From an uncultured bacterium (lineage in GTDB: Bacteria; Oederibacteriota; Oederibacteriia; Oederibacteriales; Oederibacteriaceae): 64,000 nucleotides of DNA. Below are positions 2,802 to 18,297 of this stretch, one piece after another. Each line of letters begins with the position of its first letter. The first letter of the stretch is position 1. Below the pieces are notes generated by a model. It made no database searches. It was not told the origin of the DNA and worked only from the letters and a program-made list of their open reading frames with translations. The DNA is taken from contig OZ218778.1 in the NCBI GenBank assembly GCA_965112635.1, positions 1,440,001-1,504,000 on the forward strand. The letters are read 5' to 3'. Position numbers and translations under genes: made by a program.

Positions 2802-4103
2802 ATGATAGCAAAATATTTTAATTTTGCCGCGCTGAAGACCAATTTCAGGACCGAGGTGCTGGCCGGGCTTACCACCTTCATGACCATGTCCTACATTATC
2901 TTCGTGAACCCCAGCATCCTGAGCCAGGGAGGCATGCCGGCCGCGGCAGTCATGGCCGCCACTTGCGTAGCCAGCGCTGTTCCGACCTTGCTGATGGGGC
3001 TTTGGGCCAAGTATCCCCTGGCTTTGGCACCAGGCATGGGCCTTAATGCCTTCGTGGCTTTTTCCATTATCAAAGGCAAGGGGCTATCCTGGGAAACAGC
3101 CATGGCCATGATCTTCATCGAAGGGGTGGTCATCACCATCCTTGTCCTGACCCAGTTCAGACAGCAGGTCATGGACGCCATTCCCATGTCCTTGAAAAGG
3201 GCTATTGGCGCGGGTATCGGGCTTTTTCTGGCGTTCCTTGGATTAACTCAGGCGGGTTTTGTGGCGTCTGACCCGTCCACCTATTTGACCCTGGGCAAGT
3301 TTGGGAATGTAGAGACCAGCCTGGCTTTAGTTGGCCTAATCATCACGGTTGTTCTGGTAGTCCGCCGGGTGCAAGGGGCATTGCTCCTGGGCATCCTGGC
3401 CACCACCGTGTTTTCCATGATGACGGGTCATAGCCACATGCCTGACGCCATTTTTAGCTGGCCTTCTTTTGAGACTACCGGAGGGTTTGTCCGAGGCTTA
3501 GGTACTGCCCTGCAGCTGTCCCTGGTACCTTTGATTCTCACCATGATGCTGTCAGACTTTTTTGACACCATGGGCACGGTCATTGCCGTGGGAGAAGAGG
3601 GTGGTTTTCTGGATAAAACAGGGAACATCCCCAGACTGAACCGTATTTTGATCGTGGATTCAGTGGCGGCCTTTTTCGGCGGGGCCATGGGTTGTTCCTC
3701 TTCCACTACCTATATAGAAAGCGCCTCAGGCGTGGCCGCGGGAGGGCGCAGCGGTTTCGCTTCGGTGGTGACCGGGCTGTTATTCCTGGTCTGCCTGTTC
3801 TTCTCGCCTTTGGCTGGCCTGGTGCCCAAAGAAGCCACGGCTCCGGCCCTGATCCTGGTCGGGTTTTTCATGATGAGCGTCATCATGGATATTGAATGGA
3901 AAAAGGCAGAAGAGGCCTTGCCGGCTTTTTTGACGCTCCTGATGATTCCGTTGACCTTCAACATCTCGGACGGAATCGGCTGGGGCATTATTTCCTATGT
4001 GCTGGTGCAGATCGTTATGGGCAAAGGAAAAAAACTCAGTTTAGCCGTACTTTTGATCGCACTGGTCTTTGCCTTCAGCTTTTCTCCCTGGGCAGGCAGG
4101 TAG
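2802..4103 (+). CDS. NCS2/AzgA-family purine permease
   Basis: 'EVLAGLTTFMTMSYIIFVNP', 'APGMGLNAF', 'YIESASGVAAGGRSG'; AAGGAG RBS before ATG 2802. Confidence 0.92.
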   Translation: MIAKYFNFAALKTNFRTEVLAGLTTFMTMSYIIFVNPSILSQGGMPAAAVMAATCVASAVPTLLMGLWAKYPLALAPGMGLNAFVAFSIIKGKGLSWETAMAMIFIEGVVITILVLTQFRQQVMDAIPMSLKRAIGAGIGLFLAFLGLTQAGFVASDPSTYLTLGKFGNVETSLALVGLIITVVLVVRRVQGALLLGILATTVFSMMTGHSHMPDAIFSWPSFETTGGFVRGLGTALQLSLVPLILTMMLSDFFDTMGTVIAVGEEGGFLDKTGNIPRLNRILIVDSVAAFFGGAMGCSSSTTYIESASGVAAGGRSGFASVVTGLLFLVCLFFSPLAGLVPKEATAPALILVGFFMMSVIMDIEWKKAEEALPAFLTLLMIPLTFNISDGIGWGIISYVLVQIVMGKGKKLSLAVLLIALVFAFSFSPWAGR

Positions 4104-8291: not shown

Positions 8292-8906
8292 ATGGCAGAT
8301 AAGAAAAAACTCACCACCCAAAGCGGCGCGCCTGTACCTGACAACCAGAACATCATGACCGCCGGTCCGCATGGTCCGGCGCTGTTGCAGGACGTCTGGT
8401 TCCAGGAGAAGCTGGCTCATTTCGACCGCGAGGTGATCCCGGAACGGCGTATGCATGCCAAGGGATCGGGCGCCTATGGCACCTTCACGGTCACTCACGA
8501 CATTACCAAGTACACCAAGGCCAAGATATTTTCCAGCGTCGGCAAGAAGACAGACATGTTCGCGCGATTCTCCACCGTGGCCGGAGAACGCGGCGCGGCT
8601 GACGCGGAAAGGGATATCCGCGGTTTTGCCATGAAGTTCTACACTGAGGAGGGAAACTGGGACCTGGTCGGGAATAACACGCCCGTGTTCTTCCTGCGGG
8701 ACCCGCTCAAGTTCCCGGACCTCAACCACGCGGTCAAGCGCGATCCCCGCACCAACCTGCGCAGCGCGAAGAACAACTGGGATTTTTGGACCTCGCTTCC
8801 CGAGGCCCTGCACCAGATCACCATCACCATGAGCGAACGGGGGATCCCTTATTCCTACCGCCACAAAAATTGGGGTCGTATCTTGACATTTGACATGCAA
8901 AATTGA
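8292..8906 (+). pseudogene. katA: Monofunctional heme catalase, N-terminal ~190 aa only; homology ends at ~8864
   Basis: '[17 protein letters not shown]', '[11 protein letters not shown]'; expected 'YRHMHGFGSHT' is replaced by '[16 protein letters not shown]'. Confidence 0.9.
8872..8895 (+). repeat. Scaffold motif A (GGGGTCGTATCTTGACATTTGACA)
   Basis: ATCTTGACATTTGACA is re-formed at 13885-13891/15442-15450 after removing IS1182; inverted relatives at 11421-11465 and 11544-11588. Confidence 0.7.
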
Positions 8907-8960
8907 GCCCCGCCCCCCCGACCTCTTTCCGCAATTTTTCCACTCTGCATTTAGTCTCCG

Positions 8961-8980
8961 CAATCCTGTAAAAAATCGCA
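8961..8980 (+). repeat. Scaffold motif M copy 1 (CAATCCTGTAAAAAATCGCA)
   Basis: Identical 20-mer at 9957-9976 and 16145-16164. Confidence 0.9.
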
Positions 8981-9054
8981 CTTTTTTTTAATCTGCTGGT
9001 AGAATTCCAGCAGGTAAAATTAGTTTTGGAAAAGGGAATGCCATTTTTATAAGG

Positions 9055-9082
9055 TTGACAGTGTCCAATAAAATGGTAAGAT
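9055..9082 (+). promoter_or_regulatory. Sigma70-type promoter for the NYN gene
   Basis: TTGACA-16 nt-TAAGAT with TG extension. Confidence 0.6.
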
Positions 9083-9104
9083 TTTTATAGATTATGAATA
9101 TATC

Positions 9105-9168
9105 ACCCCTGTTGCTTCGGCACAGGGCGCGAAGCCGCCGCAAGGCGGCTTCTGCTTTTAGGGGGCAG
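9105..9168 (+). ncRNA. Candidate structured RNA leader upstream of the NYN gene
   Basis: CCCTGTTGC-TTCG-GCACAGGG; GAAGCCGCC-GCAA-GGCGGCTTC; weak third stem over the GGGGG RBS. Confidence 0.5.
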
Positions 9169-9169
9169 T

Positions 9170-9793
9170 TTGAGGACAAATGTCTATATTGACGGATTTA
9201 ACCTTTATTTTGGCGCAGTAAAAAGTACCCCCTATAAGTGGCTTGACTTAAATAAATTCTGCAAATTATTGCTTCCCCAAAATGAGATTTATCAGATCAA
9301 ATATTTTACGGCGTTGGTGAGGCCGCGTCCCCAAGACCCCCTGCAACCTCTCAGACAGCAGATATATTTAAGAGCGTTAAAAACTATCCCTAATTTGTCC
9401 ATTATCCTGGGGCATTTTTTGACCCATGAAGTTATGATGCCTCTAGCTGAGACCGTTGACGGCAAAACCAAATATGTCAAAGTTATTAAGACCGAAGAAA
9501 AAGGTTCAGATGTAAATTTGGCTGCTCATTTACTGAATGACGCCTATAAAAATGATTTTGAAATAGCAGCCATTGTGTCTAATGATTCAGATTTACTTGA
9601 ACCTATCAGAATCGTCCGTAGTCAGCTCAATAAAGGTGTTGGTATTATCAATCCACATGCGAAACCCAGCCGTGAGCTTTTGAAAAACGCTCTTTTTTAT
9701 AAAAAGGTTAGACGTGGTTTATTAGCCGCTAGTCAATTTCCGCCAATCATGAGCGATGCAAACGGTTCCTTTCATAAACCTGAAACCTGGTAA
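9170..9793 (+). CDS. NYN-domain (PIN-fold) ribonuclease
   Basis: 'YIDGFNLY', 'EEKGSDVNLA', 'VSNDSDL' acidic catalytic motifs; TTG start. Confidence 0.9.
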   Translation: MRTNVYIDGFNLYFGAVKSTPYKWLDLNKFCKLLLPQNEIYQIKYFTALVRPRPQDPLQPLRQQIYLRALKTIPNLSIILGHFLTHEVMMPLAETVDGKTKYVKVIKTEEKGSDVNLAAHLLNDAYKNDFEIAAIVSNDSDLLEPIRIVRSQLNKGVGIINPHAKPSRELLKNALFYKKVRRGLLAASQFPPIMSDANGSFHKPETW

Positions 9794-9834
9794 CCTAGGA
9801 GCGAGGAGACAGGTCTGGGAAGTTAAACTCAAAG

Positions 9835-9919
9835 CCGTCTCCCCCAGGCTTAACAAACCATTTTCCCCACCGGGGCACAATCTCATAAGGATTTAAGGAG
9901 TGTGCCCGTTGATTTGCCA
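9835..9919 (+). repeat. Scaffold repeat C copy 1 (~85 bp)
   Basis: Identical to 15454-15539 except for one C; internal GGGCACA...TGTGCCC inverted repeat. Confidence 0.95.
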
Positions 9920-9956
9920 TTCAGGTTATTCAACCCCATTCAGGTCGTTCAACCCG

Positions 9957-9999
9957 CAATCCTGTAAAAAATCGCATTTTCCTTAGATTTGTGTTATAC
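9957..9999 (+). repeat. Scaffold motif M copy 2 (extended)
   Basis: Core 20-mer plus TTAGATTTGTGTTATAC, shared with 16145-16187. Confidence 0.9.
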
Positions 10000-10015
10000 G
10001 AATGGGTCCCCCACG

Positions 10016-10048
10016 GGCACAGCGGAGGTTTTCCGCTGTGCCTTTTTT
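10016..10048 (+). terminator. Intrinsic terminator-like hairpin
   Basis: GGCACAGCGGA-ggttt-TCCGCTGTGCC-T6. Confidence 0.75.
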
Positions 10049-10055
10049 GTTAGCA

Positions 10056-10102
10056 GGGAAAGGTTTGACAGAGGGGCTAGGGGGGATAAAATCAAGGTAT
10101 TG
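10056..10102 (+). promoter_or_regulatory. Repeated promoter module P copy 1, upstream of KilA-N
   Basis: TTGACA-GAGGGG...-TAAAAT; related copies at 11363-11390 and 11490-11537. Confidence 0.7.
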
Positions 10103-10169
10103 TTTTAGATAGGCAGACGAGGCAAAAGGAATTAAGAATTATTTTTGATATCAATGTGGAGGATAAATA

Positions 10170-10985
10170 ATGTCAAAGATAAATGTAAAAGGCAGGGAAA
10201 TATCCATATTAAGTAAAAAAGATGAGGACTATATCTGCGTCACCGATATTGCACGATATAAAAATGCCGATAGAACCGACGATTTGATAAGGAACTGGCT
10301 GAGAAACAGGAACACTATCGAATTTTTAGGAGTTTGGGAACAGTTAAATAACCCTGGTTTTAAACCCGTGGAATTCGACGGGTTTAGAAAACAAGCCGGC
10401 CTTAATAGTTTTACGCTAACGCCCAGTCAATGGATCGCAAAAACAAACGCCATAGGGATCATCTCCAAAGCGGGGCGTTATGGCGGGACCTACGCTCACA
10501 AAGATATTGCCTTTGAGTTTGCCTCATGGATTTCCGTTGAGTTCAAGCTCTATTTGATCAAAGAATTTCAGCGCCTTAAAGAGGAGGAACACAAACAACT
10601 TGGCTGGGATATAAGACGCAATCTAACCAAAATAAACTACCGGATACATACGGATGCTGTTAAGGAAAATTTGATACCCGCCGAATTATCAAAAGCACAG
10701 ATCAATCTGGTCTATGCCACGGAAGCTGACATCCTCAATATGTCTCTATTCGGAATGACAGCCAAGCAGTGGCGGGACACTAACCCGGATAAAAAAGGAA
10801 ATATTCGTGATTATGCCGATATTTCACAGCTGGTATGTTTATCTAACCTGGAAACCCTGAACGCTCTTTTTATAAACGAAAGTTTGTCTCAGGGAGAGCG
10901 GCTCATCAAACTTAACAAAATAGCGATCCAGCAAATGAAACTCTTGACTGATCACAAGGGCATTAAAAAGCTGGGAGAATTATGA
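10170..10985 (+). CDS. KilA-N domain DNA-binding protein
   Basis: 'DYICVTDIA', 'IRNWLRNRNTIEFLGVWE', 'GRYGGTYAHKDIAFEFASWIS'. Confidence 0.92.
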   Translation: MSKINVKGREISILSKKDEDYICVTDIARYKNADRTDDLIRNWLRNRNTIEFLGVWEQLNNPGFKPVEFDGFRKQAGLNSFTLTPSQWIAKTNAIGIISKAGRYGGTYAHKDIAFEFASWISVEFKLYLIKEFQRLKEEEHKQLGWDIRRNLTKINYRIHTDAVKENLIPAELSKAQINLVYATEADILNMSLFGMTAKQWRDTNPDKKGNIRDYADISQLVCLSNLETLNALFINESLSQGERLIKLNKIAIQQMKLLTDHKGIKKLGEL

Positions 10986-11420
10986 CCTCTGGCAGGAAAC
11001 CCCGCGGACTCTGCCGCGGGGATGTTTATAGTCAAGGATTGGCTCTTTCAAGATTCTCTGAACCCCACGCTCCTTCGGCCGTTCGATAATTCCTGCAAAA
11101 ATATTAATAAGGCGTTTCCTTTCAGGTATTATCGAATCGCAACAGCTTTGCGATCCTGGCAACTCGCCTCTACAAGGCGAAGCCTTGGAGGGTCGCCGTA
11201 ACGCCGAAATGGGTTGAAGAATCTGAATGATTCTTCAACGGGCCTCTACAATAATCCTTTTTGAGGTGAGGCCCCGGCATAAATGGCCAAAAAGCGGGAA
11301 AGGTCATCGCGGATGGCGTCAGGCCATCCAGCGAAGTGTCACAGGCATAAGAGCCTGCGACGTTGACAGAGGGGATGGGGAGCGTAAAATGAAGAAATGG
11401 TTTTAGATATTCTCTGGCAA

Positions 11421-11588
11421 TGAAAAGGGGTTTGGAATGCAAGAAACAAGACTCGACCCCTTTTCCGTTGAAATAAATGGCCAAAAAGCGGGAAAGATTT
11501 GACAGAGGGGATGGGGGAGAGCAAAATCAAGGTATTGCTTTGGTGAAAAGGGGTTTGGAATGCAAGAAACAAGACTCGACCCCTTTTC
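11421..11588. repeat. Two identical 45-bp copies of hairpin motif F (11421-11465, 11544-11588)
   Basis: TGAAAAGGGGTTTGGAATGCAAGAAACAAGACTCGACCCCTTTTC twice; a 24-bp repeat also at 11279-11302 and 11473-11496. Confidence 0.95.
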
Positions 11589-11649
11589 ACGCTGTGTCTA
11601 GCCTGGTGCTGTGCTCAGGGAACCCCCTTTTTTCCTTCTATATATATCA

Positions 11650-11900
11650 ATCTGGATAATGGGTCGCAGGGCTCCATCAAGATCGGGCCCAAGAAGTTCA
11701 TCGTGCTCCATTAACCCCGTCCTCAAAAGCTGGCGATTTCCAGATAAGACAATCCCCCCGGAATACCCCCACAATGCCCTCAATGCTGGGTTAAGTCCCT
11801 GCCGGACTGCTCTGGCTGGTCTGGTTGGTTTAACCGCAACAATCCCGCCTTCAGCGAGGCCTCTTTAAAATACCTCTGGATTCCGGCTAACCGCCAACTG
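11650..11900 (-). pseudogene. Possible decayed tyrosine-recombinase C-terminal fragment
   Basis: One frame with stops reads 'IQRYFKEASLKAGL...QH*GH...GLSYLEIASF*GR..ST', loosely like box II; weak. Confidence 0.3.
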
Positions 11901-12077
11901 TCCGTAAAACTGTCCGTAAAAAGTGTCCGCAAAGAATGTCCGCAAAGAACTGTCCGTAAAAACCTGCTATAAAACAATACTGTTATTAAATAACAATATT
12001 CAAGTGTCCGTAAAAACTGTCCATAAAACTGTCCGCAAAAGTGTCCGCAAAGAATGTCCGTAAAAAGTGTCCGCAAA
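11899..12077 (+). repeat. Array of 11 direct repeats TGTCC(G/A)(T/C)AAA in clusters of 5 and 6 around an AT-rich spacer
   Basis: Copies start at 11899, 11911, 11924, 11937, 11951, 12005, 12018, 12030, 12042, 12055, 12068. Confidence 0.95.
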
Positions 12078-12107
12078 AGGCCAGGGTGTTGGTATAATGA
12101 CCAACCT

Positions 12108-12608
12108 ATGCTGGACGCTTTAAAATCTCTCAGGACCCCAAAAAAGGACACTCAGGGTATCTTTGGCCTGCTGGCCTGGATATTCGGCGGGGTCTTCTTT
12201 TGCCATGTGATTTACCGCCTGTTTATCACCCCTGTGGACGGCTATCTGACCACCCACCAAAAATGGGTCCATGTCAGCCTAGGAAGCAACCCCTACTTCC
12301 TGACCGACCTGGGCCAATCCTGCGTTCCCTTTGTTATCTACATCATCTTCCTGTATCTCTACCTGTTCCTGCAGGAAGCCCGCTGCTGGGTGCTTTACCG
12401 GGCTCTCCAGGACGACCCGGCCCTGAGTATAGGTCAGATGACCTCTTTTCGCGGTCTAAAAGCCTGGTTCTACCTGTGGCTCGTCTGCCACTGGATGGCC
12501 ATCCTAGGGGTCTACCGTGGAATGGGGTCACCTATGAAAAAAGAAGTCAAGCCAAAAGCACACCCCAAATCCGTTCAGAACCTACAAAGGGTCTCTAGTT
12601 CCATTTAA
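12108..12608 (+). CDS. Hypothetical membrane protein (~3 TM segments)
   Basis: Hydrophobic stretches; extended -10 TGGTATAAT at 12090-12098 just upstream of ATG 12108. Confidence 0.5.
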   Translation: MLDALKSLRTPKKDTQGIFGLLAWIFGGVFFCHVIYRLFITPVDGYLTTHQKWVHVSLGSNPYFLTDLGQSCVPFVIYIIFLYLYLFLQEARCWVLYRALQDDPALSIGQMTSFRGLKAWFYLWLVCHWMAILGVYRGMGSPMKKEVKPKAHPKSVQNLQRVSSSI

Positions 12609-12673
12609 GGACTAGGAAGCCAGTCACCTATAGATGCTCAAAGGCATATGATGAAGTAGGAACCGGTGGCACA

Positions 12674-13885
12674 ATCACATCTTTCGGATTTAGCTGAAAT
12701 AATCCTCAGCTATTCCATGACCCCGTGGTGCTCGCCGGCCTTTTCCTGCCCTAAAGCTACAAGCTTAAAGGTTTCCTTACGTCTGAGCATATACCAAATG
12801 ACTTCCAAAAGCTTTCGCGCCACAGCAACCCTTCCCGTATTGGCTCCATGCTTGAGTCTAACCCGTTCAAATAAGTTTTTGAACCGTTGATCCTTTTTAA
12901 TTATATGATGACTGTTTTCTACTAAAATCCATCTGAGCCACTTAGAACCTTGCTTTGTTAATCCACCGTGCCTTTCATTATCTGCAGATTGATAGGTTGA
13001 CGGCACCAGCCCAGCGTACGAGCACAACTTTTTTGCACCTGGAAACCTGTCTATTTCTCCAATCTCACTCAAGATCAGCAGGGCAGAATAGATTCCAATC
13101 CCAGGAATACTCTGCAACCTCTGACCTTCTTCACTCAGCTCGATCTGTTTATCCAGCTTTTTCTTGTTCTTCAGCAGCTCCTTGTTCACTGCGTCTATCA
13201 GTCTCAAAAAACCATTTACTTCCTCACGGTAGCTCTCTCTCAATTCAAGACCGGCTAGCCACTTACGGCCCTTCTTGCCAAAAACATCGCTCATTTCATC
13301 TTCGCGCCCATCCTTCATTAAAACCGCGTGAATCTTGCACTTTAACGATGCCCTTTGGGAGACCAGGGAGGCACGGTATCTGAGAACCTCCCTCAAGTCC
13401 CTAATCTCTCTTTTGGGAATGTAAGCGCTGGGCACCAAGTCGGCTCTGGATAAGTGGGCTAGAGTCGTACTGTCTATGGTGTCTGTCTTTATCCGGGCGG
13501 AGGCGATGGCTTTGACTTTCAACGGATGCGCTAAGGTAACTAGGGGCAGATGCTTCTCTATCGTCTCGTAAAAGAACATCCAGTTTCCGGTTGCCTCTAC
13601 AACAACCTTGGTATCCCTAGGATATTTCCCGAAAAAACTCTCCATCTCCTCCCGGTTGTTATTTACTCTCCTTTTCTCTAATACCTTTCCTTTATCATCC
13701 ATCGCTACGACTTGACTGAACTTCTTGTGAAGATCTACCCCCAGATGTATACTCATTTTTGCCGCACCTCCTTAAAAGATTTGTTCCAGCCTTACGGCTG
13801 AGAACCCAGGTTCCCCAAGAACTTTGGTCCTTGAGACCCAGTATATCTTTTAGGATGTGCGGTTTTCCTTTTTCATCACATCACA
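12674..13885 (-). mobile_element. IS110-family element (ends approximate)
   Basis: No terminal IRs; ATCACATCTT at both junctions (12674-12683, 13880-13889); structured 5' non-coding end. Confidence 0.85.
12710..13756 (-). CDS. IS110 DEDD recombinase/transposase
   Basis: 'GVDLHK', 'VEATG', 'KTDTIDS', 'SIPGIG', 'YAGLVPSTYQS', 'VAVARKL'. Confidence 0.95.
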   Translation of the reverse strand: MSIHLGVDLHKKFSQVVAMDDKGKVLEKRRVNNNREEMESFFGKYPRDTKVVVEATGNWMFFYETIEKHLPLVTLAHPLKVKAIASARIKTDTIDSTTLAHLSRADLVPSAYIPKREIRDLREVLRYRASLVSQRASLKCKIHAVLMKDGREDEMSDVFGKKGRKWLAGLELRESYREEVNGFLRLIDAVNKELLKNKKKLDKQIELSEEGQRLQSIPGIGIYSALLILSEIGEIDRFPGAKKLCSYAGLVPSTYQSADNERHGGLTKQGSKWLRWILVENSHHIIKKDQRFKNLFERVRLKHGANTGRVAVARKLLEVIWYMLRRKETFKLVALGQEKAGEHHGVME

Positions 13886-13891
13886 TCTTGA

Positions 13892-15437
13892 CGGGCTGTT
13901 GCCCAAACGATCTCTCTGCCGACTTTTAGCAAAAAGAAGGTGTTAGCCAGCAATGAGAGACAGGCGAGTCCTTAAATAGCCTTAACAACCTTCCAGAAAC
14001 CTCCAAAACCACCGCTTGCGCCCTCGGTCCTCTTCCTCGCTTTACCAGTATCTCGATATTCTGAATTGCCGCCGTCAAATACTCCTGAATCCGAGCCCTC
14101 CAAAGCCTTCGCCATCGCATTCGGGCGAAACCATATCGTTGCGCCCTGGCAAAACTGCGCTCCATCAAATGTTGTCTTATTCGAATGTCTCTCTGCGCTA
14201 TCCAGGATCGGCTGACTTGTCTCATGCTATCCAATTCTTCCTGTCGGAAATGCCTATTTACGGTCCTCCCACTATTGCTCTCCGTACATTGATCTCTCAA
14301 CCCACAAGCCATGCAATCATGTTTAGACGCCGCATAATCTGTGCTCTGTTTCGCTTCGTGAACGGATCTGGGCTTGAGATGGTTCCCGGCTGGACATTCG
14401 TATCTATCGCTGACTGGGTCGTAATGGAACTCCGATGCAGGAAATATCGGCTTCCGGGATGTCTTTCCTGGATTCGTTTTTCCCAGGTCGGGCATATGAG
14501 CCTCCACTCCTCGGTCCAAGCAGGCTAGAAAATTCTCTACCGTCCCATACTTTCCATCCGCCACTACTGTTTGGGCTTGCCTCTCTGTGTTCTGGTGGTG
14601 CTGATCTACCAACGCTTCCATCCGATGGGCCTCGTTCACTTCGCCTGGTGTCACCTCGGTCGCCGTGATAATTTCATGCGCCCCATCCACGGCTCGATGG
14701 ACCTGATACCGAGGCTTGCTCCCACCTACTCGGCGTACCAACGACGCATCCGGATCAGTCGTGGATATATAGCGCTGATTTACCCTCTGTCTCTCCAAAC
14801 CAACCCGCCTCTCTTGAGGCGCTTCTTCCAGACGCCTTTCCAGCTCAAGGTATTTAAGCCTCAATTGACCCTTCAATGACCGGGTGTCCACCACCGAATT
14901 GCAGGAGGCATCCGCTTCCACCAGGCTTGAATCCATGAATATTTTCCGCCCATCTACCAACTTGGCTTCTACACATTGAAAAACGATCCTTTCAAAAAAC
15001 TCCCTAAAAACCTCTTCTCCCCAGCGCTTACGGGCTTTCGAGAGCACACTGTGATCAGGTATCTCCGTTTCCAGGTCGTATCCCAGAAACCACAGCCAAT
15101 CCAGCCTTTCAGGCAAGGTTTCCATCAATTCCCGCTCCGAGCGGACATTGTAAAATACCAGTAAAAGCATGAGTTTCAGGATGAGAGGCGGGGGAACCGA
15201 TTCGTTACCGTTGTTACCATACTTACCCTTGACGGCTCTGTAGACAAAGTCAAAATCAACTAGGGATGCTACTCTTCGAAGCGGGTGGTTGGCTCGTACG
15301 CGGCCTTCCATGTTAATATTCACATAGAACAGCTTCCCTTGCGGTGCTTTCTCGATTCCCATCATGGGGCATCACCTCCTGTAAAAGAAGTATATCGCCT
15401 CATGACTTTTCTTCAACAGCATTTGGGCAACAGCCCG
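13892..15437 (-). mobile_element. IS1182-family element with 16-bp terminal IRs and TTGA target duplication
   Basis: CGGGCTGTTGCCCAAA (13892-13907) / TTTGGGCAACAGCCCG (15422-15437); TTGA at 13888-13891 and 15438-15441. Confidence 0.93.
13926..15365 (-). CDS. IS1182-family DDE transposase
   Basis: 'SERELM', 'PDHSVLSKARKR', 'STTDPDA', 'VADGKY', 'CPAG', 'MERSFA'. Confidence 0.93.
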   Translation of the reverse strand: MMGIEKAPQGKLFYVNINMEGRVRANHPLRRVASLVDFDFVYRAVKGKYGNNGNESVPPPLILKLMLLLVFYNVRSERELMETLPERLDWLWFLGYDLETEIPDHSVLSKARKRWGEEVFREFFERIVFQCVEAKLVDGRKIFMDSSLVEADASCNSVVDTRSLKGQLRLKYLELERRLEEAPQERRVGLERQRVNQRYISTTDPDASLVRRVGGSKPRYQVHRAVDGAHEIITATEVTPGEVNEAHRMEALVDQHHQNTERQAQTVVADGKYGTVENFLACLDRGVEAHMPDLGKTNPGKTSRKPIFPASEFHYDPVSDRYECPAGNHLKPRSVHEAKQSTDYAASKHDCMACGLRDQCTESNSGRTVNRHFRQEELDSMRQVSRSWIAQRDIRIRQHLMERSFARAQRYGFARMRWRRLWRARIQEYLTAAIQNIEILVKRGRGPRAQAVVLEVSGRLLRLFKDSPVSHCWLTPSFC

Positions 15438-15453
15438 TTGACATTTGACAATC

Positions 15454-15539
15454 CCGTCTCCCCCCAGGCTTAACAAACCATTTTCCCCACCGGGGCACAA
15501 TCTCATAAGGATTTAAGGAGTGTGCCCGTTGATTTGCCA
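15454..15539 (+). repeat. Scaffold repeat C copy 2
   Basis: Matches 9835-9919. Confidence 0.95.
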
Positions 15540-15668
15540 CGTGCTCAAGCGCCCATCCATGAGGATGGGCTTGAGCATGTGAGGACGTGAATACCCCCCA
15601 TCTTGCATGTGATATAATGAGACAGTAAGAAAAATTCAGGCGCTAATTTTGATATGGAGGCATTAGCC

Positions 15669-15884
15669 ATGAAATTTATTGTTCTTTTGGAGAAAGCAGA
15701 AGAGGGCGGATACAATGTAAAGGTTCCTGCTTTAGACGGTTGTTTCACGCAAGGTGAAACAGAAAAAGAAGCTCTCGCCAATGCCCAAGAAGCAGTTCAA
15801 TGCTATTTGGAAGGGCTGCAAAAGGTTAACGAAATCAAGGCAAAGAAGATGGTCCTGTCAAGGCAAATAGAGGTCAGGATTTGA
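15669..15884 (+). CDS. hicB: HicB-family antitoxin (short form)
   Basis: '[33 protein letters not shown]'; GGAGG RBS before ATG 15669. Confidence 0.9.
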
Positions 15885-16096
15885 GCAAAACATTTTCCGG
15901 CAAAGAAGTAGTGGGGGCTTTAAAGAGGATTGGATTTACCATTGACCATCAGCGCGGGAGCCATGTCTTCTTGTATAATAAAGACAAAAATATTTCAGTT
16001 ATAGTACCGGCGCATAAAGAGCTGAAAAAAGGCACTCTTCATTCTATATTAAAAAAGGGCGGCCTTACTCTGGAGGATTTAAGGAAATTGGTTTAG
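15881..16096 (+). CDS. hicA: HicA-family toxin
   Basis: '[11 protein letters not shown]', '[17 protein letters not shown]'; overlaps the hicB stop. Confidence 0.92.
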
Positions 16097-16130
16097 TGTA
16101 TCCCCAGCCCCCTTCCATATTTTACCCCCT

Positions 16131-16187
16131 TGCATCTAGTTTCCCAATCCTGTAAAAAATCGCACTTTTCTTAGATTTGTGTTATAC
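16131..16187 (+). repeat. Scaffold motif M copy 3, running into the vapB promoter region
   Basis: Shares its upstream flank with copy 1 and its downstream flank with copy 2. Confidence 0.9.
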
Positions 16188-16234
16188 ACATAAATATGGT
16201 ATATTATGTGTATGAAAGAAAGGAGGGAAGACGG

Positions 16235-16435
16235 ATGTTAAGGACCAATATTGAGTTGGATGAAAAAATGGTGGGACAAGCGCTCAAGCTTACCCACATG
16301 AGGACGAAAAAAGAGCTGGTGAATTACGCCATCAAGGAAATCGTAAGTAGGGAAAAAAGAAAAAAACTCCTTGAGGTGGAAGGGAAAATAACCTGGAAGG
16401 GAAACCTGGAGCTCGTGAGGCAAAGCAGGGCATGA
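16235..16435 (+). CDS. vapB: VapB-family antitoxin
   Basis: 'MLRTNIELDE...TKKELVNYA...WKGNL'; AAGGAGG RBS. Confidence 0.88.
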   Translation: MLRTNIELDEKMVGQALKLTHMRTKKELVNYAIKEIVSREKRKKLLEVEGKITWKGNLELVRQSRA

Positions 16436-16830
16436 TCCTGGTTGATACGAGCGTATGGATCGATTTTTTCACGGGAAAGTCCACACCCCAGCGCCGCATG
16501 CTCCATCAGTTGATCGAGGAGGACGCGGAACTCTGTATTGCGGAGATCATCCTGACGGAAATTCTCCAGGGAGTCGGGGAGGACCAGGAATTTGAAAGGA
16601 TAAAAAGTTACCTGTTGGAATTCCCCATACAAAAGCCAAGGGGTGTTGCAACCTATCTGAAAGCCGCGGAGCTTTACAGGGATTGCAGAAAAAAAGGAAG
16701 AACGGTCAGGAAGACCGTGGATTGCATCCTGGCCGCTTTATGCCTGGAAAACCATCTTGTCCTGCTGCACCATGATAAAGATTTTGACATGATCGCCGAG
16801 TGCTCCGAGCTTAATATATTAAAAGGATAA
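16432..16830 (+). CDS. vapC: VapC PIN-domain toxin
   Basis: 'ILVDTSVWIDF', 'EILQG', 'TVDCILA', 'LHHDKDF'. Confidence 0.93.
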   Translation: MILVDTSVWIDFFTGKSTPQRRMLHQLIEEDAELCIAEIILTEILQGVGEDQEFERIKSYLLEFPIQKPRGVATYLKAAELYRDCRKKGRTVRKTVDCILAALCLENHLVLLHHDKDFDMIAECSELNILKG

Positions 16831-16836
16831 ACATCT

Positions 16837-18297
16837 GTGGCGGAAAATACAAAACCAAAGAGCGGGTTTGCCCAGAAAGAACGGGGCTTTTTTAGGTCTT
16901 TGAGCGGGTTTACTTTGCTTTGCCTGGCTGTGGCAGGCATCCTGGGAATAACCCTGTTGATGGACCTTTTCCAGCACAAGATAACCTATCCCGGCAAACA
17001 GGTCATCACCTTTGCCTCGATGTGGGCGCCGGGGGAGCCGGTCCAGCTGGGCTACGAGCAGATATTCCGGGATTTTGAAAAAGAGTACCCGCAGTACAAA
17101 GTGGAGGCGCGCTGGGAAGGACGCTGGGTCATCCCGGCCATCCGGCCCCGTCTGCTGACCCATTCGGACATCCCGGACATCATCAATGTGGACCGCGACA
17201 GCCTGCGCATCCTGGTGGAGAACGGGTTTATGGAGAGGCTGGACGATATCCTGGACCAGGCGCCCCATCCGGACGACAAAGGCAAAACTTTGCGCCAGGC
17301 TTTTTTGCCCAAGATACTGGATGTTTGCCGGTTCAAACAGGAAGAGGCCGGAGGCAACCCGACCGGCGTCTATCTGGTCCCTTCCGGCGTCTGGACAGTC
17401 TTTGTTTTCTATAACCGCTACCCTTACGAGAAATTAAAGCTCAAAATACCGCGGACCTGGTCGGCTTTTATGGACAACTGCCGCAAGCTCAAGGCGGCCG
17501 GCTATGTGCCCATCGCCGCGGACAAAGATGAATACGCCAATATGTGGGAGGGTTTGCTTTTATGCAGGGCGGTGGGGGAAAAGACCCTGCATCAGACCGT
17601 CACCCAGGGGTTCCCGCGGTTTGATACGGACCCGAGATACCGGCGGACCTATGAGGCCATCCGCGAAATGCACCAGCCCGGCTGGTTCATTGACGGCTGG
17701 CTGGGGTCCCAGTGGCCCGCGGCCCAGAGGCGCTGGGTGAGCGGGGACGGGGTGCATCTCATCTGCGGGTCGTGGATCATCCGGGAAGTCATGTCCTACC
17801 AGCCCGACCCCAAAATATTCAAGCTGGGCGGTTTTATGGTTCCCATGATCGACGGCATAGACTGGAAGGGCCGGAAACCCCTGCCTCTGGGCGACTCCAG
17901 CGGGGTCACTGCCGCCGTGACCGGCCACGCCCTTTTCAAGGGCGGGAGGAACAAGCAGGGGGCCATTCTCCTGCTGTCCTATATCGCCAAACGCCAGAGC
18001 GCCTATGCCCTGGCCTCCATCGGCAAGGAGATCCCGCCCATCGTAGGGGCGTCCTTTCCCCCGGAACTGGAAGACATCCGGCAGGATTTCCAGTCAGCCC
18101 GGATCGTTTATACGGACTCGGTGTCGAACTACGCGGCCAAATGGTTCAAATTTATCCACAACGACCTGTTCCACGATTTTTTTATCTACGAAACGCCCAA
18201 AGAGAACGGTTACCTGACCGTGGACGAGTTCCTGCGGCAAGTCCAGAAGAAGACCGACGAGTACGTTCGCCAGGGCGGGGAGAAAGGGATCAAATAA
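16837..18297 (+). CDS. Carbohydrate ABC transporter substrate-binding protein
   Basis: N-terminal TM anchor; 'PDII', 'FYNR..YEKL..IPRTW..F...C.KLKAAG..PI'. Confidence 0.85.
   Translation: MAENTKPKSGFAQKERGFFRSLSGFTLLCLAVAGILGITLLMDLFQHKITYPGKQVITFASMWAPGEPVQLGYEQIFRDFEKEYPQYKVEARWEGRWVIPAIRPRLLTHSDIPDIINVDRDSLRILVENGFMERLDDILDQAPHPDDKGKTLRQAFLPKILDVCRFKQEEAGGNPTGVYLVPSGVWTVFVFYNRYPYEKLKLKIPRTWSAFMDNCRKLKAAGYVPIAADKDEYANMWEGLLLCRAVGEKTLHQTVTQGFPRFDTDPRYRRTYEAIREMHQPGWFIDGWLGSQWPAAQRRWVSGDGVHLICGSWIIREVMSYQPDPKIFKLGGFMVPMIDGIDWKGRKPLPLGDSSGVTAAVTGHALFKGGRNKQGAILLLSYIAKRQSAYALASIGKEIPPIVGASFPPELEDIRQDFQSARIVYTDSVSNYAAKWFKFIHNDLFHDFFIYETPKENGYLTVDEFLRQVQKKTDEYVRQGGEKGIK

Follow-up and report, generated by a model that had tools for sequence, protein, structure and literature searches.

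A BIME-like family of TIRtron end-repeats within a bacterial defense island, with an integron-like cassette machine unproven

The locus described here is probably a mosaic of spacers that have the end-repeat of TIRYT/TIRtron elements as their basis and are set amid ordinary toxin-antitoxin (TA) and phage-defense genes, the whole forming, as part of the same judgment, a low-GC defense and TA island (46.3% GC in the region versus 51.3% for the whole 2.88-Mb genome) at the point where a deletion has cut into a catalase gene. It lies within the window, by which we mean the whole 64,000-nucleotide stretch of DNA analyzed. A preceding sequence-only reading had recognized three repeated motifs (A, C and M) and interpreted them as a novel integron-like cassette platform. 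All three are present at the positions claimed; in addition, there are three copies of M, and two insertion sequences (IS) split the second copy of A. A 20-mer found three times and an 85-mer found twice in 2.9 Mb cannot have arisen by chance. The picture reached is that of a BIME-like terminal inverted repeat (TIR) family inside a defense island, the cassette machine being unproven. The genes themselves are ordinary, and only the noncoding modules shared between them are unusual. The features of the locus, with coordinates in the window and strand, are as follows.

8292-8867 (+): catalase gene, 5′ half; Pfam Catalase 1.4e-94, profile positions 1-196 of 383
8868-8985 (+): spacer U1; TIR head A1 at 8868-8897, M-bearing tail with M at 8961-8980
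~8905-8947 (+): C-rich box of U1 with the ATTTTTCC motif, from the alignment of the spacers
9055-9082 (+): promoter-like site upstream of the NYN gene
9131-9152 (+): leader hairpin and T-run upstream of the NYN gene
9170-9793 (+): NYN-domain protein, 207 aa, candidate defense gene; Pfam NYN 7.3e-10
9800-9999 (+): spacer U2; motif C at 9835-9919, M with extension at 9957-9999
9917-9954 (+): two 19-nt tandem units of U2
10015-10043 (+): terminator-like hairpin
10065-10092 (+): promoter module P, after the terminator-like hairpin
10170-10985 (+): KilA-N domain protein, 271 aa, candidate defense gene; Pfam KilA-N 9.4e-25
11363-11465 and 11499-11588 (+): two tandem units, each a P promoter and a 45-nt hairpin
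11592-12517 (+): recent duplicate of a segment of another island; 99-100% identical to genome positions 2008582-2009651
12518-12530 (+): TIR A3, outer part of the head
12531-13883, ends accurate to within a few bases (-): IS110-family element; NCBIfam IS110 RNA-guided transposase, 237 bits, cut-off 140
13884-13891 (+): TIR A3, middle; last four bases, TTGA, duplicated at 15438-15441
13892-15437 (-): IS1182-family element; NCBIfam IS1182, 313.5 bits, cut-off 270
15442-15539 (+): spacer U3, right part; TIR A3 end at 15442-15450, then box and motif C at 15455-15539
15654-15884 (+): hicB; Pfam HicB_lk_antitox 2.4e-11
15881-16096 (+): hicA; Pfam HicA_toxin 4.1e-18
16100-16187 (+): spacer U4; box and tail with M at 16145-16164 plus extension, without TIR head
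16196-16435 (+): vapB; Pfam VapB_antitoxin 7.5e-14
16432-16830 (+): vapC; Pfam PIN 7.6e-15, NCBIfam VapC 8e-47

Motif A, the 16-mer of which occupies 8880-8895 in its first copy, is by sequence identity the TIR of RAYT-like Y1/HUH transposase genes. A1 has 29 of 30 nt in common with the 5′-side TIR of the TIRtron at genome position 1522653, and A3 is identical to a TIR of that element over 25 of 25 nt. The genome holds five intact TIRYT genes of 277-278 aa, all outside the locus, which bears out the RAYT-like HUH/Y1 link proposed earlier. Their products carry the motifs NHYH and YVVLNP, score 52-53 bits with Pfam Y1_Tnp (cut-off 23), and are divergent (52-77% identical). Inverted copies of ~25-29 nt bound, on either side, the elements at 1522653-1523582, 1775596-1776524, and 2734092-2734999, and each of the two type-4 elements has one TIR interrupted by an IS. 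TIRtrons are outlined by Di Nocera et al. 2013 (PMC3733652) as having the head GGGGWSAS and repeats that are single, dimeric, or clustered; measured against that consensus, the heads GGGGTCAC and GGGGTCAG fit, and GGGGTCGT and GGGGTCAA are each off at one position. The repeat is consistent with this published type, and the class that matches is, as characterized in the cited part of Quentin et al. 2018 (PMC6006769), TnpA-Y1 subclass 2.1. The C-terminal HTH that is a trait of the subclass is approached by HTH_23, Sigma70_r4_2, and HTH_38, each at 18 bits and under its cut-off. With the NCBIfam RAYT model (NF047646) the proteins narrowly miss the cut-off of 80, at 79.1 and 76.8 bits, a point of difference from RAYTs, and an IS200-type TnpA is not indicated, since NF033573 gives only 20.2 bits (cut-off 55) and the ends are inverted repeats. 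The likeness to TIRtrons thus comprises the Y1/HUH gene of ~278 aa with both motifs, inverted repeats of ~29 nt starting GGGGTC around it, extra TIR copies that are single, tandem, and clustered, and several divergent copies per genome. Beyond what the cited part of the published description sets out, the solo copies here possess a conserved one-sided extension of ~60 nt with further mosaic blocks, are concentrated in TA and defense islands, and are fixed targets of two IS families.

This last property is seen directly in A3, the head, middle, and end of which are separated by the two elements. The TIR is a specific landing site for both families: all four genomic copies of the IS110-family element lie between a TIR head and a TIR middle, and both copies of the IS1182-family element lie in a TIR, the second (2872030-2873588) at the same point of another repeat. 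In the window the latter element is bracketed by TTGA at 13888-13891 and 15438-15441, and a miniature relative of it occupies the same TIR point in genome G006. Insertion of IS110-family elements into REPs, as outlined by Tobes and Pareja 2006 (PMC1525189), offers a parallel, as does the work on ISPpu9 (10.1101/2025.01.17.633520) and on bridge RNA (PMC11208160). The fixed insertion point is the shared feature; here, however, the insertions go into a TIRYT TIR, not a REP, and an unrelated second IS with its own TTGA duplication is found a few bases further on.

The presence of multi-copy IS inside the island, together with a contig that starts and ends in IS110/TIRtron repeats, raises the question of whether repeats were collapsed or misjoined in this metagenome-derived genome. 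We regard this as extremely improbable. Target duplications and TIR halves are exact around both IS, and identical public contigs, possibly from the source sample, span both the catalase-A1-M junction (8615-8981) and that of truncated gene, TIR, and IS110 (12471-12634), so these two junctions are not assembly artifacts. Parts of the stretch were found in eight public runs, the best containing 0.48 of the sampled words. Four of the runs gave contigs of 74-840 nt at a depth of ~2-10, which is too thin to bear on empty slots or circles. None of their joints points to an empty slot or a circle, and the three listed (two small skips with low side length and, within the IS1182 element, one opposite-strand joint) are, like the uncovered parts, uninformative on slots.

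Motifs C and M behave differently from the TIR. The two copies of C, 98.8% identical over 86 columns, are the only ones in the genome; the exact 20-mer M begins at 8961, 9957, and 16145 and has no other genomic copy at up to three mismatches. Both motifs are likewise absent from 98 genomes of the phylum and lack an extended match in two public collections. The exact M 20-mer does recur there, in three stretches among genome contigs and two among metagenome contigs, with homology never extending past 20-32 nt. One of these stretches, examined in full, is coding DNA, and such matches were rejected as true homologues, being at chance level. C and M are thus private to the locus rather than general sites as had been supposed; the sequence-only reading had itself named motifs occurring only here as evidence against a platform, and for these two motifs this is the situation found.

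Alignment of U1-U4 reveals mosaic relatives composed of a TIR head, a C-rich box, an optional 70-nt insert accounting for most of motif C, and a tail corresponding to motif M; U1 is matched by the long HMM with an E of 2.7e-17. U4 combines U1-like sequence upstream of M (positions 16119-16144 are akin to what precedes the first M, at 85% over 55 nt) with U2-like sequence downstream, the M copies at 9957 and 16145 sharing 43 nt at 95%. A weak alignment hints at a degenerate third TIR head just before the first C (~9808-9834). Because the four spacers align as mosaic paralogues, the repeat order dissolves as a set of slots: the supposed filled and empty positions are, on this alignment, neighboring paralogous spacers, and the genes merely lie between consecutive ones. 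Copies of the C and M blocks are sharply bordered and 95-99% identical, so that ordinary recombination explains them no better than would a transfer of discrete pieces. Rfam yielded no family for 8500-17000 at E values of up to 1, and four folded units of this genome (two from L001 and two from the window) gave z values of -0.74 to +0.25 versus shuffles. Nor is a MITE indicated, as the window copies are one-ended and without inverted partner, two ends being present only in a doublet in genome G010. The box might conceivably be the antisense of the last codons of a TIRYT gene, a relationship seen for the type-4 element over a short length.

The privacy of the motifs, with C twice and M three times only at this locus, might also reflect a plain segmental history without any Y1 enzyme, in which a spacer and promoter were duplicated locally, indels and homologous recombination followed, and the TIR pieces are inert debris. 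The extension of M overlaps the vapBC promoter/operator region, and the island itself houses two IS along with a segment recently duplicated from another island. We nevertheless consider this account unlikely: the outer edge of the TIR heads is precise against unrelated upstream DNA in many copies, all ten solo copies are co-oriented with replication, and one tandem duplication would need several more events to arrive at differing genes between the copies. The single tandem duplication that the sequence-only reading had set against its own proposal likewise fails as a full account, since it cannot by itself place different genes between copies.

The outer edge of the TIR is associated with two gene truncations. 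The catalase frame enters motif A and ends at the stop at 8904-8906; it is the sole PF00199 match in the genome (profile 1-197 of 383), the 3′ half being absent genome-wide, and the TIR edge truncates the gene. The second case is the recent duplicate, whose identity to its source stops exactly at the A3 head and whose left edge is not at a spacer. It holds iteron-like 12-13-nt repeats (11896-12078) and, from 12054, a truncated membrane-protein gene, the source copy of which encodes 343 aa.

Ten solo TIR copies with a conserved extension of ~85 nt were identified in the genome with the long HMM, on which the copy counts rest; a mixed HMM of the four TIR variants is less sensitive than single-type models, and a regex census was rejected when its control yielded about as many chance matches (3). 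All of the comparison genomes belong to the same phylum, and 7 of 40 others contain the TIR head (control hits 0). In these the repeat stands beside enolase, RpiB, or SHMT, in the FtsA-FtsZ gap, or in gene-less arrays, and so does not mark cassette boundaries. The expectation that solo copies separate TA and defense modules held true at this locus and in three or more other islands of the genome; that the repeat is a cassette boundary did not, as it is of general intergenic occurrence. By our tally, 7 of the 11 copies with annotated neighbors in this genome adjoin TA or defense-like genes, all being co-oriented with the upstream gene, and an open frame of 70 codons or more terminates between 36 nt before and 72 nt after the head at 11 of 16 copies. 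A cassette system would have the same appearance in all three respects. The ten solos and all five TIRYT genes are aligned with replication-fork movement, as expected from single-strand Y1 transposition, a count that is confounded by gene orientation and comprises about six independent loci. The solo units are one-ended and non-folding (z ~0), which makes their movement by a Y1 enzyme hard to explain, and blastx of the 600 nt behind 16 solos with the five TIRYT proteins revealed no credible coding remnant; the best match (E 0.009) was rejected, as it falls on an unrelated HTH gene.

The four spacers are probably members of a repeat family dispersed over the genome, headed by the TIRtron TIR and continued by a variable set of conserved short blocks. 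TIRYT enzymes may work in trans on single-stranded DNA to spread or rearrange TIR-headed units, which would land at or within gene 3′ ends; events at the outer TIR edge could then have severed neighbors, here the catalase gene and the membrane-protein gene of the duplicate. The near-identical C and M blocks and, through these, the repeated A-C-M order would presumably stem from recombination or conversion between spacers, and the TIR doubles as the landing site of the two IS families. A tempting integron-like system is thereby replaced by a concrete, testable picture in which little-studied end-repeats build mosaic spacers in defense islands, mark gene truncations, and draw two unrelated IS families. 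The genome should be a useful example for the study of TIRYT enzymes, offering four TIR variants that each have an enzyme copy of their own, a replication strand bias, and IS110/IS1182 targeting.

The same enzymes could instead serve a true cassette platform, a Y1-driven analogue of the integron in which TIRYT excises and inserts single-stranded defense and TA modules in trans at TIR-headed spacers. Co-oriented arrays of such spacers with differing TA and defense cargo in at least four islands, genes ending at or inside the TIR head, a 99-100% identical duplicate halting exactly at one, sharp-bordered mosaic blocks, and five intact TIRYT genes all agree with it. It is nonetheless quite unlikely, given that C and M are unique to the locus, that the TIR elsewhere accompanies the housekeeping genes and gene-less arrays noted above, that the left edge of the duplicate is away from any spacer, that the NYN module of genome G032 lies between a different direct repeat without TIR, and that no module occurs in two places with spacers on both sides. 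The specific version, in which TIRYT cuts single-stranded DNA at the outer TIR edge and joins it to other DNA, with defense and TA modules thereby being captured, shortened, and shuffled anew downstream of one standard spacer, appears very doubtful. If true, it would constitute a cassette array without attC or integrase and give an enzyme class lacking a function a role in building defense islands.

The array resembles integrons and CALINs, the latter being integrase-less attC clusters, in its co-oriented small genes, many of them TA, in the repeat of a single family that comes after each, and in having no integrase alongside. The earlier statement that integrase and attC sites are lacking stands: no IntI-type integrase adjoins the array, the nearest Phage_integrase being ~22 kb upstream of the region and outside the window; the nearest resolvase match is >125 kb away; and a crude scan for attC-like sites (RYYYAAC ... 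GTTRRRY with paired arms), which is not the IntegronFinder model and could let weak sites escape, gave none genome-wide. Unlike integron cassettes, the modules carry their own promoters, and the repeat is a Y1 transposon end rather than a folded recombination site. Further parallels are the REP, BIME, and REPIN-RAYT systems, in which gene 3′ ends carry a short repeat whose cognate Y1 enzyme looks domesticated; the assembly of mosaic intergenic units from the repeat and other short motifs is that of BIMEs as outlined in PMC2817692, and a perfect inverted doublet in G010 (z -11.9) recalls a REPIN. The repeat differs from REPs and REPINs in being non-palindromic, with unfolded solos (z ~0) and no GTAG head, and its copies are co-oriented instead of inverted pairs and number a few tens, not hundreds.

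The cargo consists, as judged from its genes and signals, of self-contained modules (NYN, KilA-N, HicAB, and VapBC) with their own promoter-like and terminator-like sites or operators. The NYN and KilA-N proteins are matched over their full length by PADLOC HEC-09 (1.9e-41) and PDC-S22 (1.9e-138), respectively, and lie beside HicAB and VapBC, in keeping with defense islands and their candidate single-gene systems, from which the locus differs in the noncoding modules shared between its genes. The NYN leader and gene are 67% identical to their counterpart in G032. Promoter module P has seven copies in the genome versus none in a reversed-sequence control, and a third unit of P and hairpin is located at genome position 861173.

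Three non-coding motifs, A, C and M, recur among the toxin and defence-like genes of the region. They were described by the sequence-only reading, and inspection of the region, a repeat finder and a mismatch-tolerant genome search agree on them; domain matches likewise bear out its naming of all the genes. The features, by window position, are:

8868-8897: motif A, first copy
8961: motif M (20 nt), first copy
9170-9793: NYN gene
9835-9919: motif C, first copy
9957: motif M, second copy
10170-10985: KilA-N gene
12518-12530, 13884-13891 and 15442-15450: motif A, second copy, in three pieces
15455-15539: motif C, second copy
15654-16096: HicB/HicA genes
16145: motif M, third copy
16196-16830: VapB/VapC genes

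The copies of C, recovered by reading, repeat finder and genome search, are 98.8% identical over 86 columns, while the M copies at 9957 and 16145 have 43 nt in common at 95%. When both insertion sequences (IS) are removed, the second copy of A becomes one intact repeat abutting C. The GC content of the region is 46.3% versus 51.3% for the genome. Short, low-depth contigs from public runs bridge two junctions (8615-8981 and 12471-12634) and confirm both; no joint of one spacer to another was seen among these contigs, which are too short and shallow to weigh against such joints. A separate repeat of approximately 100 nt at 11631-11735 has at least eight further scattered genomic copies (81-93% identity).

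Outside the window, the approximately 29-nt sequence of motif A is found in inverted pairs with a spacing of about 900 bp, each enclosing one gene for a protein of 277-278 amino acids with a Y1_Tnp domain (52-53 bits versus a cut-off of 23) and the motifs NHYH and YVVLNP. A genome census gave five such genes flanked by terminal inverted repeats (TIRs) and one ordinary IS200-type gene. The five proteins are 52-77% identical among themselves, with one pair at 99.3%, and their elements form four types, each possessing its own TIR variant. The TIR copy holding the second motif A (A3) is identical over 25 nt to the 3′-side TIR of the element at genome positions 1522653-1523582, and that holding the first (A1) differs from its 5′-side TIR by one base in 30. 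The best score against the curated NCBI model for REP-associated tyrosine transposases was 79.1, one bit short of the cut-off of 80. Di Nocera et al. 2013 (PMC3733652) describe "TIRtrons," which encode "TIRYT" transposases and whose TIRs have the common head GGGGWSAS, as moderately abundant families with single, dimeric or clustered copies. According to Quentin et al. 2018 (PMC6006769), TIRYT corresponds to TnpA-Y1 subclass 2.1, in which a C-terminal HTH accompanies the HuH motif NH[YF]H and the Y motif Y..LNP. The published arrangement, a Y1 gene within inverted TIRs, matches that in this genome, and the element type is thus already on record. The suggestion of a RAYT-like enzyme in trans was therefore right as regards motif A, which is the TIR of five Y1 genes located elsewhere. 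Three TIRYT elements immediately follow, or interrupt, paralogues of one secreted-protein gene pair (approximately 258 and 225 amino acids) at 1521.5-1522.7, 2733.4-2734.1 and 2874.5-2875.0 kb.

The search for C and M beyond the region, which the sequence-only reading had proposed, revealed neither in the rest of the 2.88-Mb genome (mismatch-tolerant search) nor in 98 other genomes of the phylum (DNA search with 8860-10060). All that the latter search returned was a 35-nt hairpin in one genome and, in a different one, the NYN gene together with its leader (67% identity). The exact M 20-mer is present in three stretches from species-representative genomes and two from metagenome contigs, none of which showed homology past 20-32 nt; the one match inspected at full length is coding DNA. 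By these searches, C and M are confined to this locus.

The four spacers between gene modules, which precede NYN (U1), KilA-N (U2), hicBA (U3) and vapBC (U4), were aligned with three spacers of an island at 2.01-2.02 Mb. All seven belong to one mosaic family assembled from a TIR head, a short A-rich stretch, a C-rich box, an ATTTT.CC motif and a tail starting CAATCCTG. U2 equals U1 plus an insert of approximately 70 nt, which makes up most of C and includes a hairpin and two 19-nt units. U3 possesses head, box and C and is devoid of the tail; U4 has box and tail and is devoid of the head. Upstream of M, U4 resembles U1 (85% over 55 nt), and downstream it resembles U2 (95% over 43 nt). Because the four spacers align as one family, the slots that had been read as filled in one copy and empty in the other are adjacent paralogous spacers separated by genes. 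Recent copying or conversion among spacers is suggested by the C and M blocks, which are sharply bordered and highly identical.

We regard a true Y1-driven cassette system as improbable; such a system would be highly interesting. That the region has no adjacent integrase and no attC sites, as originally stated, holds: the nearest tyrosine recombinase match is approximately 22 kb upstream, no serine recombinase match lies within 125 kb, and a crude scan for attC-type sites was blank. No Rfam family was found in the region. The reading that we favor, and consider probable, is that TIRYT end-repeats form the basis of a BIME-like repeat family within a defence/toxin-antitoxin island. Local copying among spacers would have given rise to the repeated A-C-M order, and events at the TIR edge would account for truncated genes.

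The TIR head (two mismatches at most) was detected in 7 of 40 other genomes, all comparison genomes being related at the level of phylum only, versus none for a reversed-pattern control. There, too, it flanks TIRYT genes. One genome (G010) carries a perfect 79-nt inverted TIR doublet between ftsA- and ftsZ-like genes (z −11.9); another (G006) has co-oriented TIR arrays with no genes between the copies; and in a third (G028) the TIR occupies gaps adjoining the genes for enolase, RpiB and serine hydroxymethyltransferase. In these genomes, the gene upstream often has its stop codon within the TIR. From such sites it follows that the TIR is a general intergenic element, which tends to land at gene ends, and not a boundary peculiar to toxin cargo.

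In the host genome, a profile search for the long TIR form without a transposase gene ("solo") gave ten copies at E ≤ 1e-4, gene-flanking copies not counted, with approximately 60 further bases in common behind the TIR. They form islands near 186-190 kb, near 743-745 kb, at 934 kb, in the window and at 2016-2023 kb. Neighbors include AbiV, an HTH and AAA ATPase pair, Phd/ParE, a nucleotidyltransferase-HEPN pair, a PIN protein and a Schlafen-type helicase (PADLOC PDC-S41); by our tally, 7 of 11 copies with annotated neighbors adjoin toxin-antitoxin or defence-like genes. A same-strand open frame of at least 70 codons ends between 36 nt before and 72 nt after the GGGG head in 11 of the 16 copies examined. 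By cumulative GC skew, the replication origin lies near 0.77 Mb and the terminus near 2.25 Mb. Each of the ten solos and of the five TIRYT genes runs in the direction of fork movement, a count confounded by gene orientation and with about six independent loci behind it; this bias fits single-strand Y1 transposition.

Two genes are truncated at the TIR edge. A catalase frame (8292-8906) covering profile positions 1-197 of 383 (PF00199) runs into A1. No other PF00199 match was found in this 97%-complete genome, and the organism probably has no working catalase of that family. The segment 11592-12517 matches part of the 2.01-Mb island at 99-100% identity. The gene concerned encodes 343 amino acids there; in the window it is truncated, and identity ends exactly at the head of A3. 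There is no spacer at the left end of the segment. No family match was found for this 343-residue membrane protein. Upstream of the membrane-protein gene, 11896-12078 contains two clusters of 12-13-nt iteron-like repeats (TGTCCG.AAA type) around an AT-rich center; a paralogue at 2.137 Mb has a different repeat unit at the corresponding place (approximately 2136560-2136660).

The TIR is also a landing site for two insertion sequences, the copies of which are:

window 12531-13883: IS110 family
genome 1089559-1090933: IS110 family
genome 2021899-2023267: IS110 family
contig start/end: IS110 family
window 13892-15437: IS1182 family
genome 2872030-2873588: IS1182 family

All four copies of the IS110-family element (NCBIfam, 237 bits versus a cut-off of 140) separate a TIR head (GGGGTCA) from the TIR middle; the guide RNA of this element is presumably matched to the TIRYT repeat. 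Both copies of the IS1182-family element (NCBIfam, 313.5 bits versus 270) sit a few bases further along, with TTGA duplicated. At the same TIR point, G006, from another family of the phylum, carries a miniature element with related ends (contig C38, approximately 3262-3385). REPs are known targets of IS110-family elements, according to PMC1525189 and 10.1101/2025.01.17.633520; no description of the TIRYT TIR as an IS target was found in the portions of the TIRtron and REP/IS110 literature consulted. Both ends of the single contig fall within IS110 and TIRYT-element repeats (positions 1-2500; 2871.6-2876.0 kb), two nearly identical TIRYT copies lie near them, and circular closure there is uncertain.

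The cargo genes form self-contained modules. The NYN protein matches PADLOC HEC-09 (1.9e-41) and the KilA-N protein PDC-S22 (1.9e-138), each over its full length. The NYN gene has its own promoter-like site and leader hairpin, and the module of promoter, structured leader and HEC-09 gene (9033-9796) is kept at 67% DNA identity in G032 (contig C54), a member of another family of the phylum. In G032 it is located between copies of a different direct repeat of approximately 30 nt and no TIR was found at it, the direct-repeat flanks hinting at another route of movement for the module. The KilA-N gene is preceded by a terminator-like hairpin and then by a promoter module, P, which has seven genomic copies versus none in a reversed control and an upstream block in common with other islands. 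By eye, hicBA and vapBC each come with a palindromic operator region, for which a simple scan gave weak promoter-like matches only. A promoter-hairpin unit, without an Rfam match, occurs three times (11363-11465, 11499-11588 and genome position ~861173); it consists of a near-consensus promoter having a G-rich spacer and, approximately 30 nt later, a 45-nt hairpin, and may be a small RNA gene.
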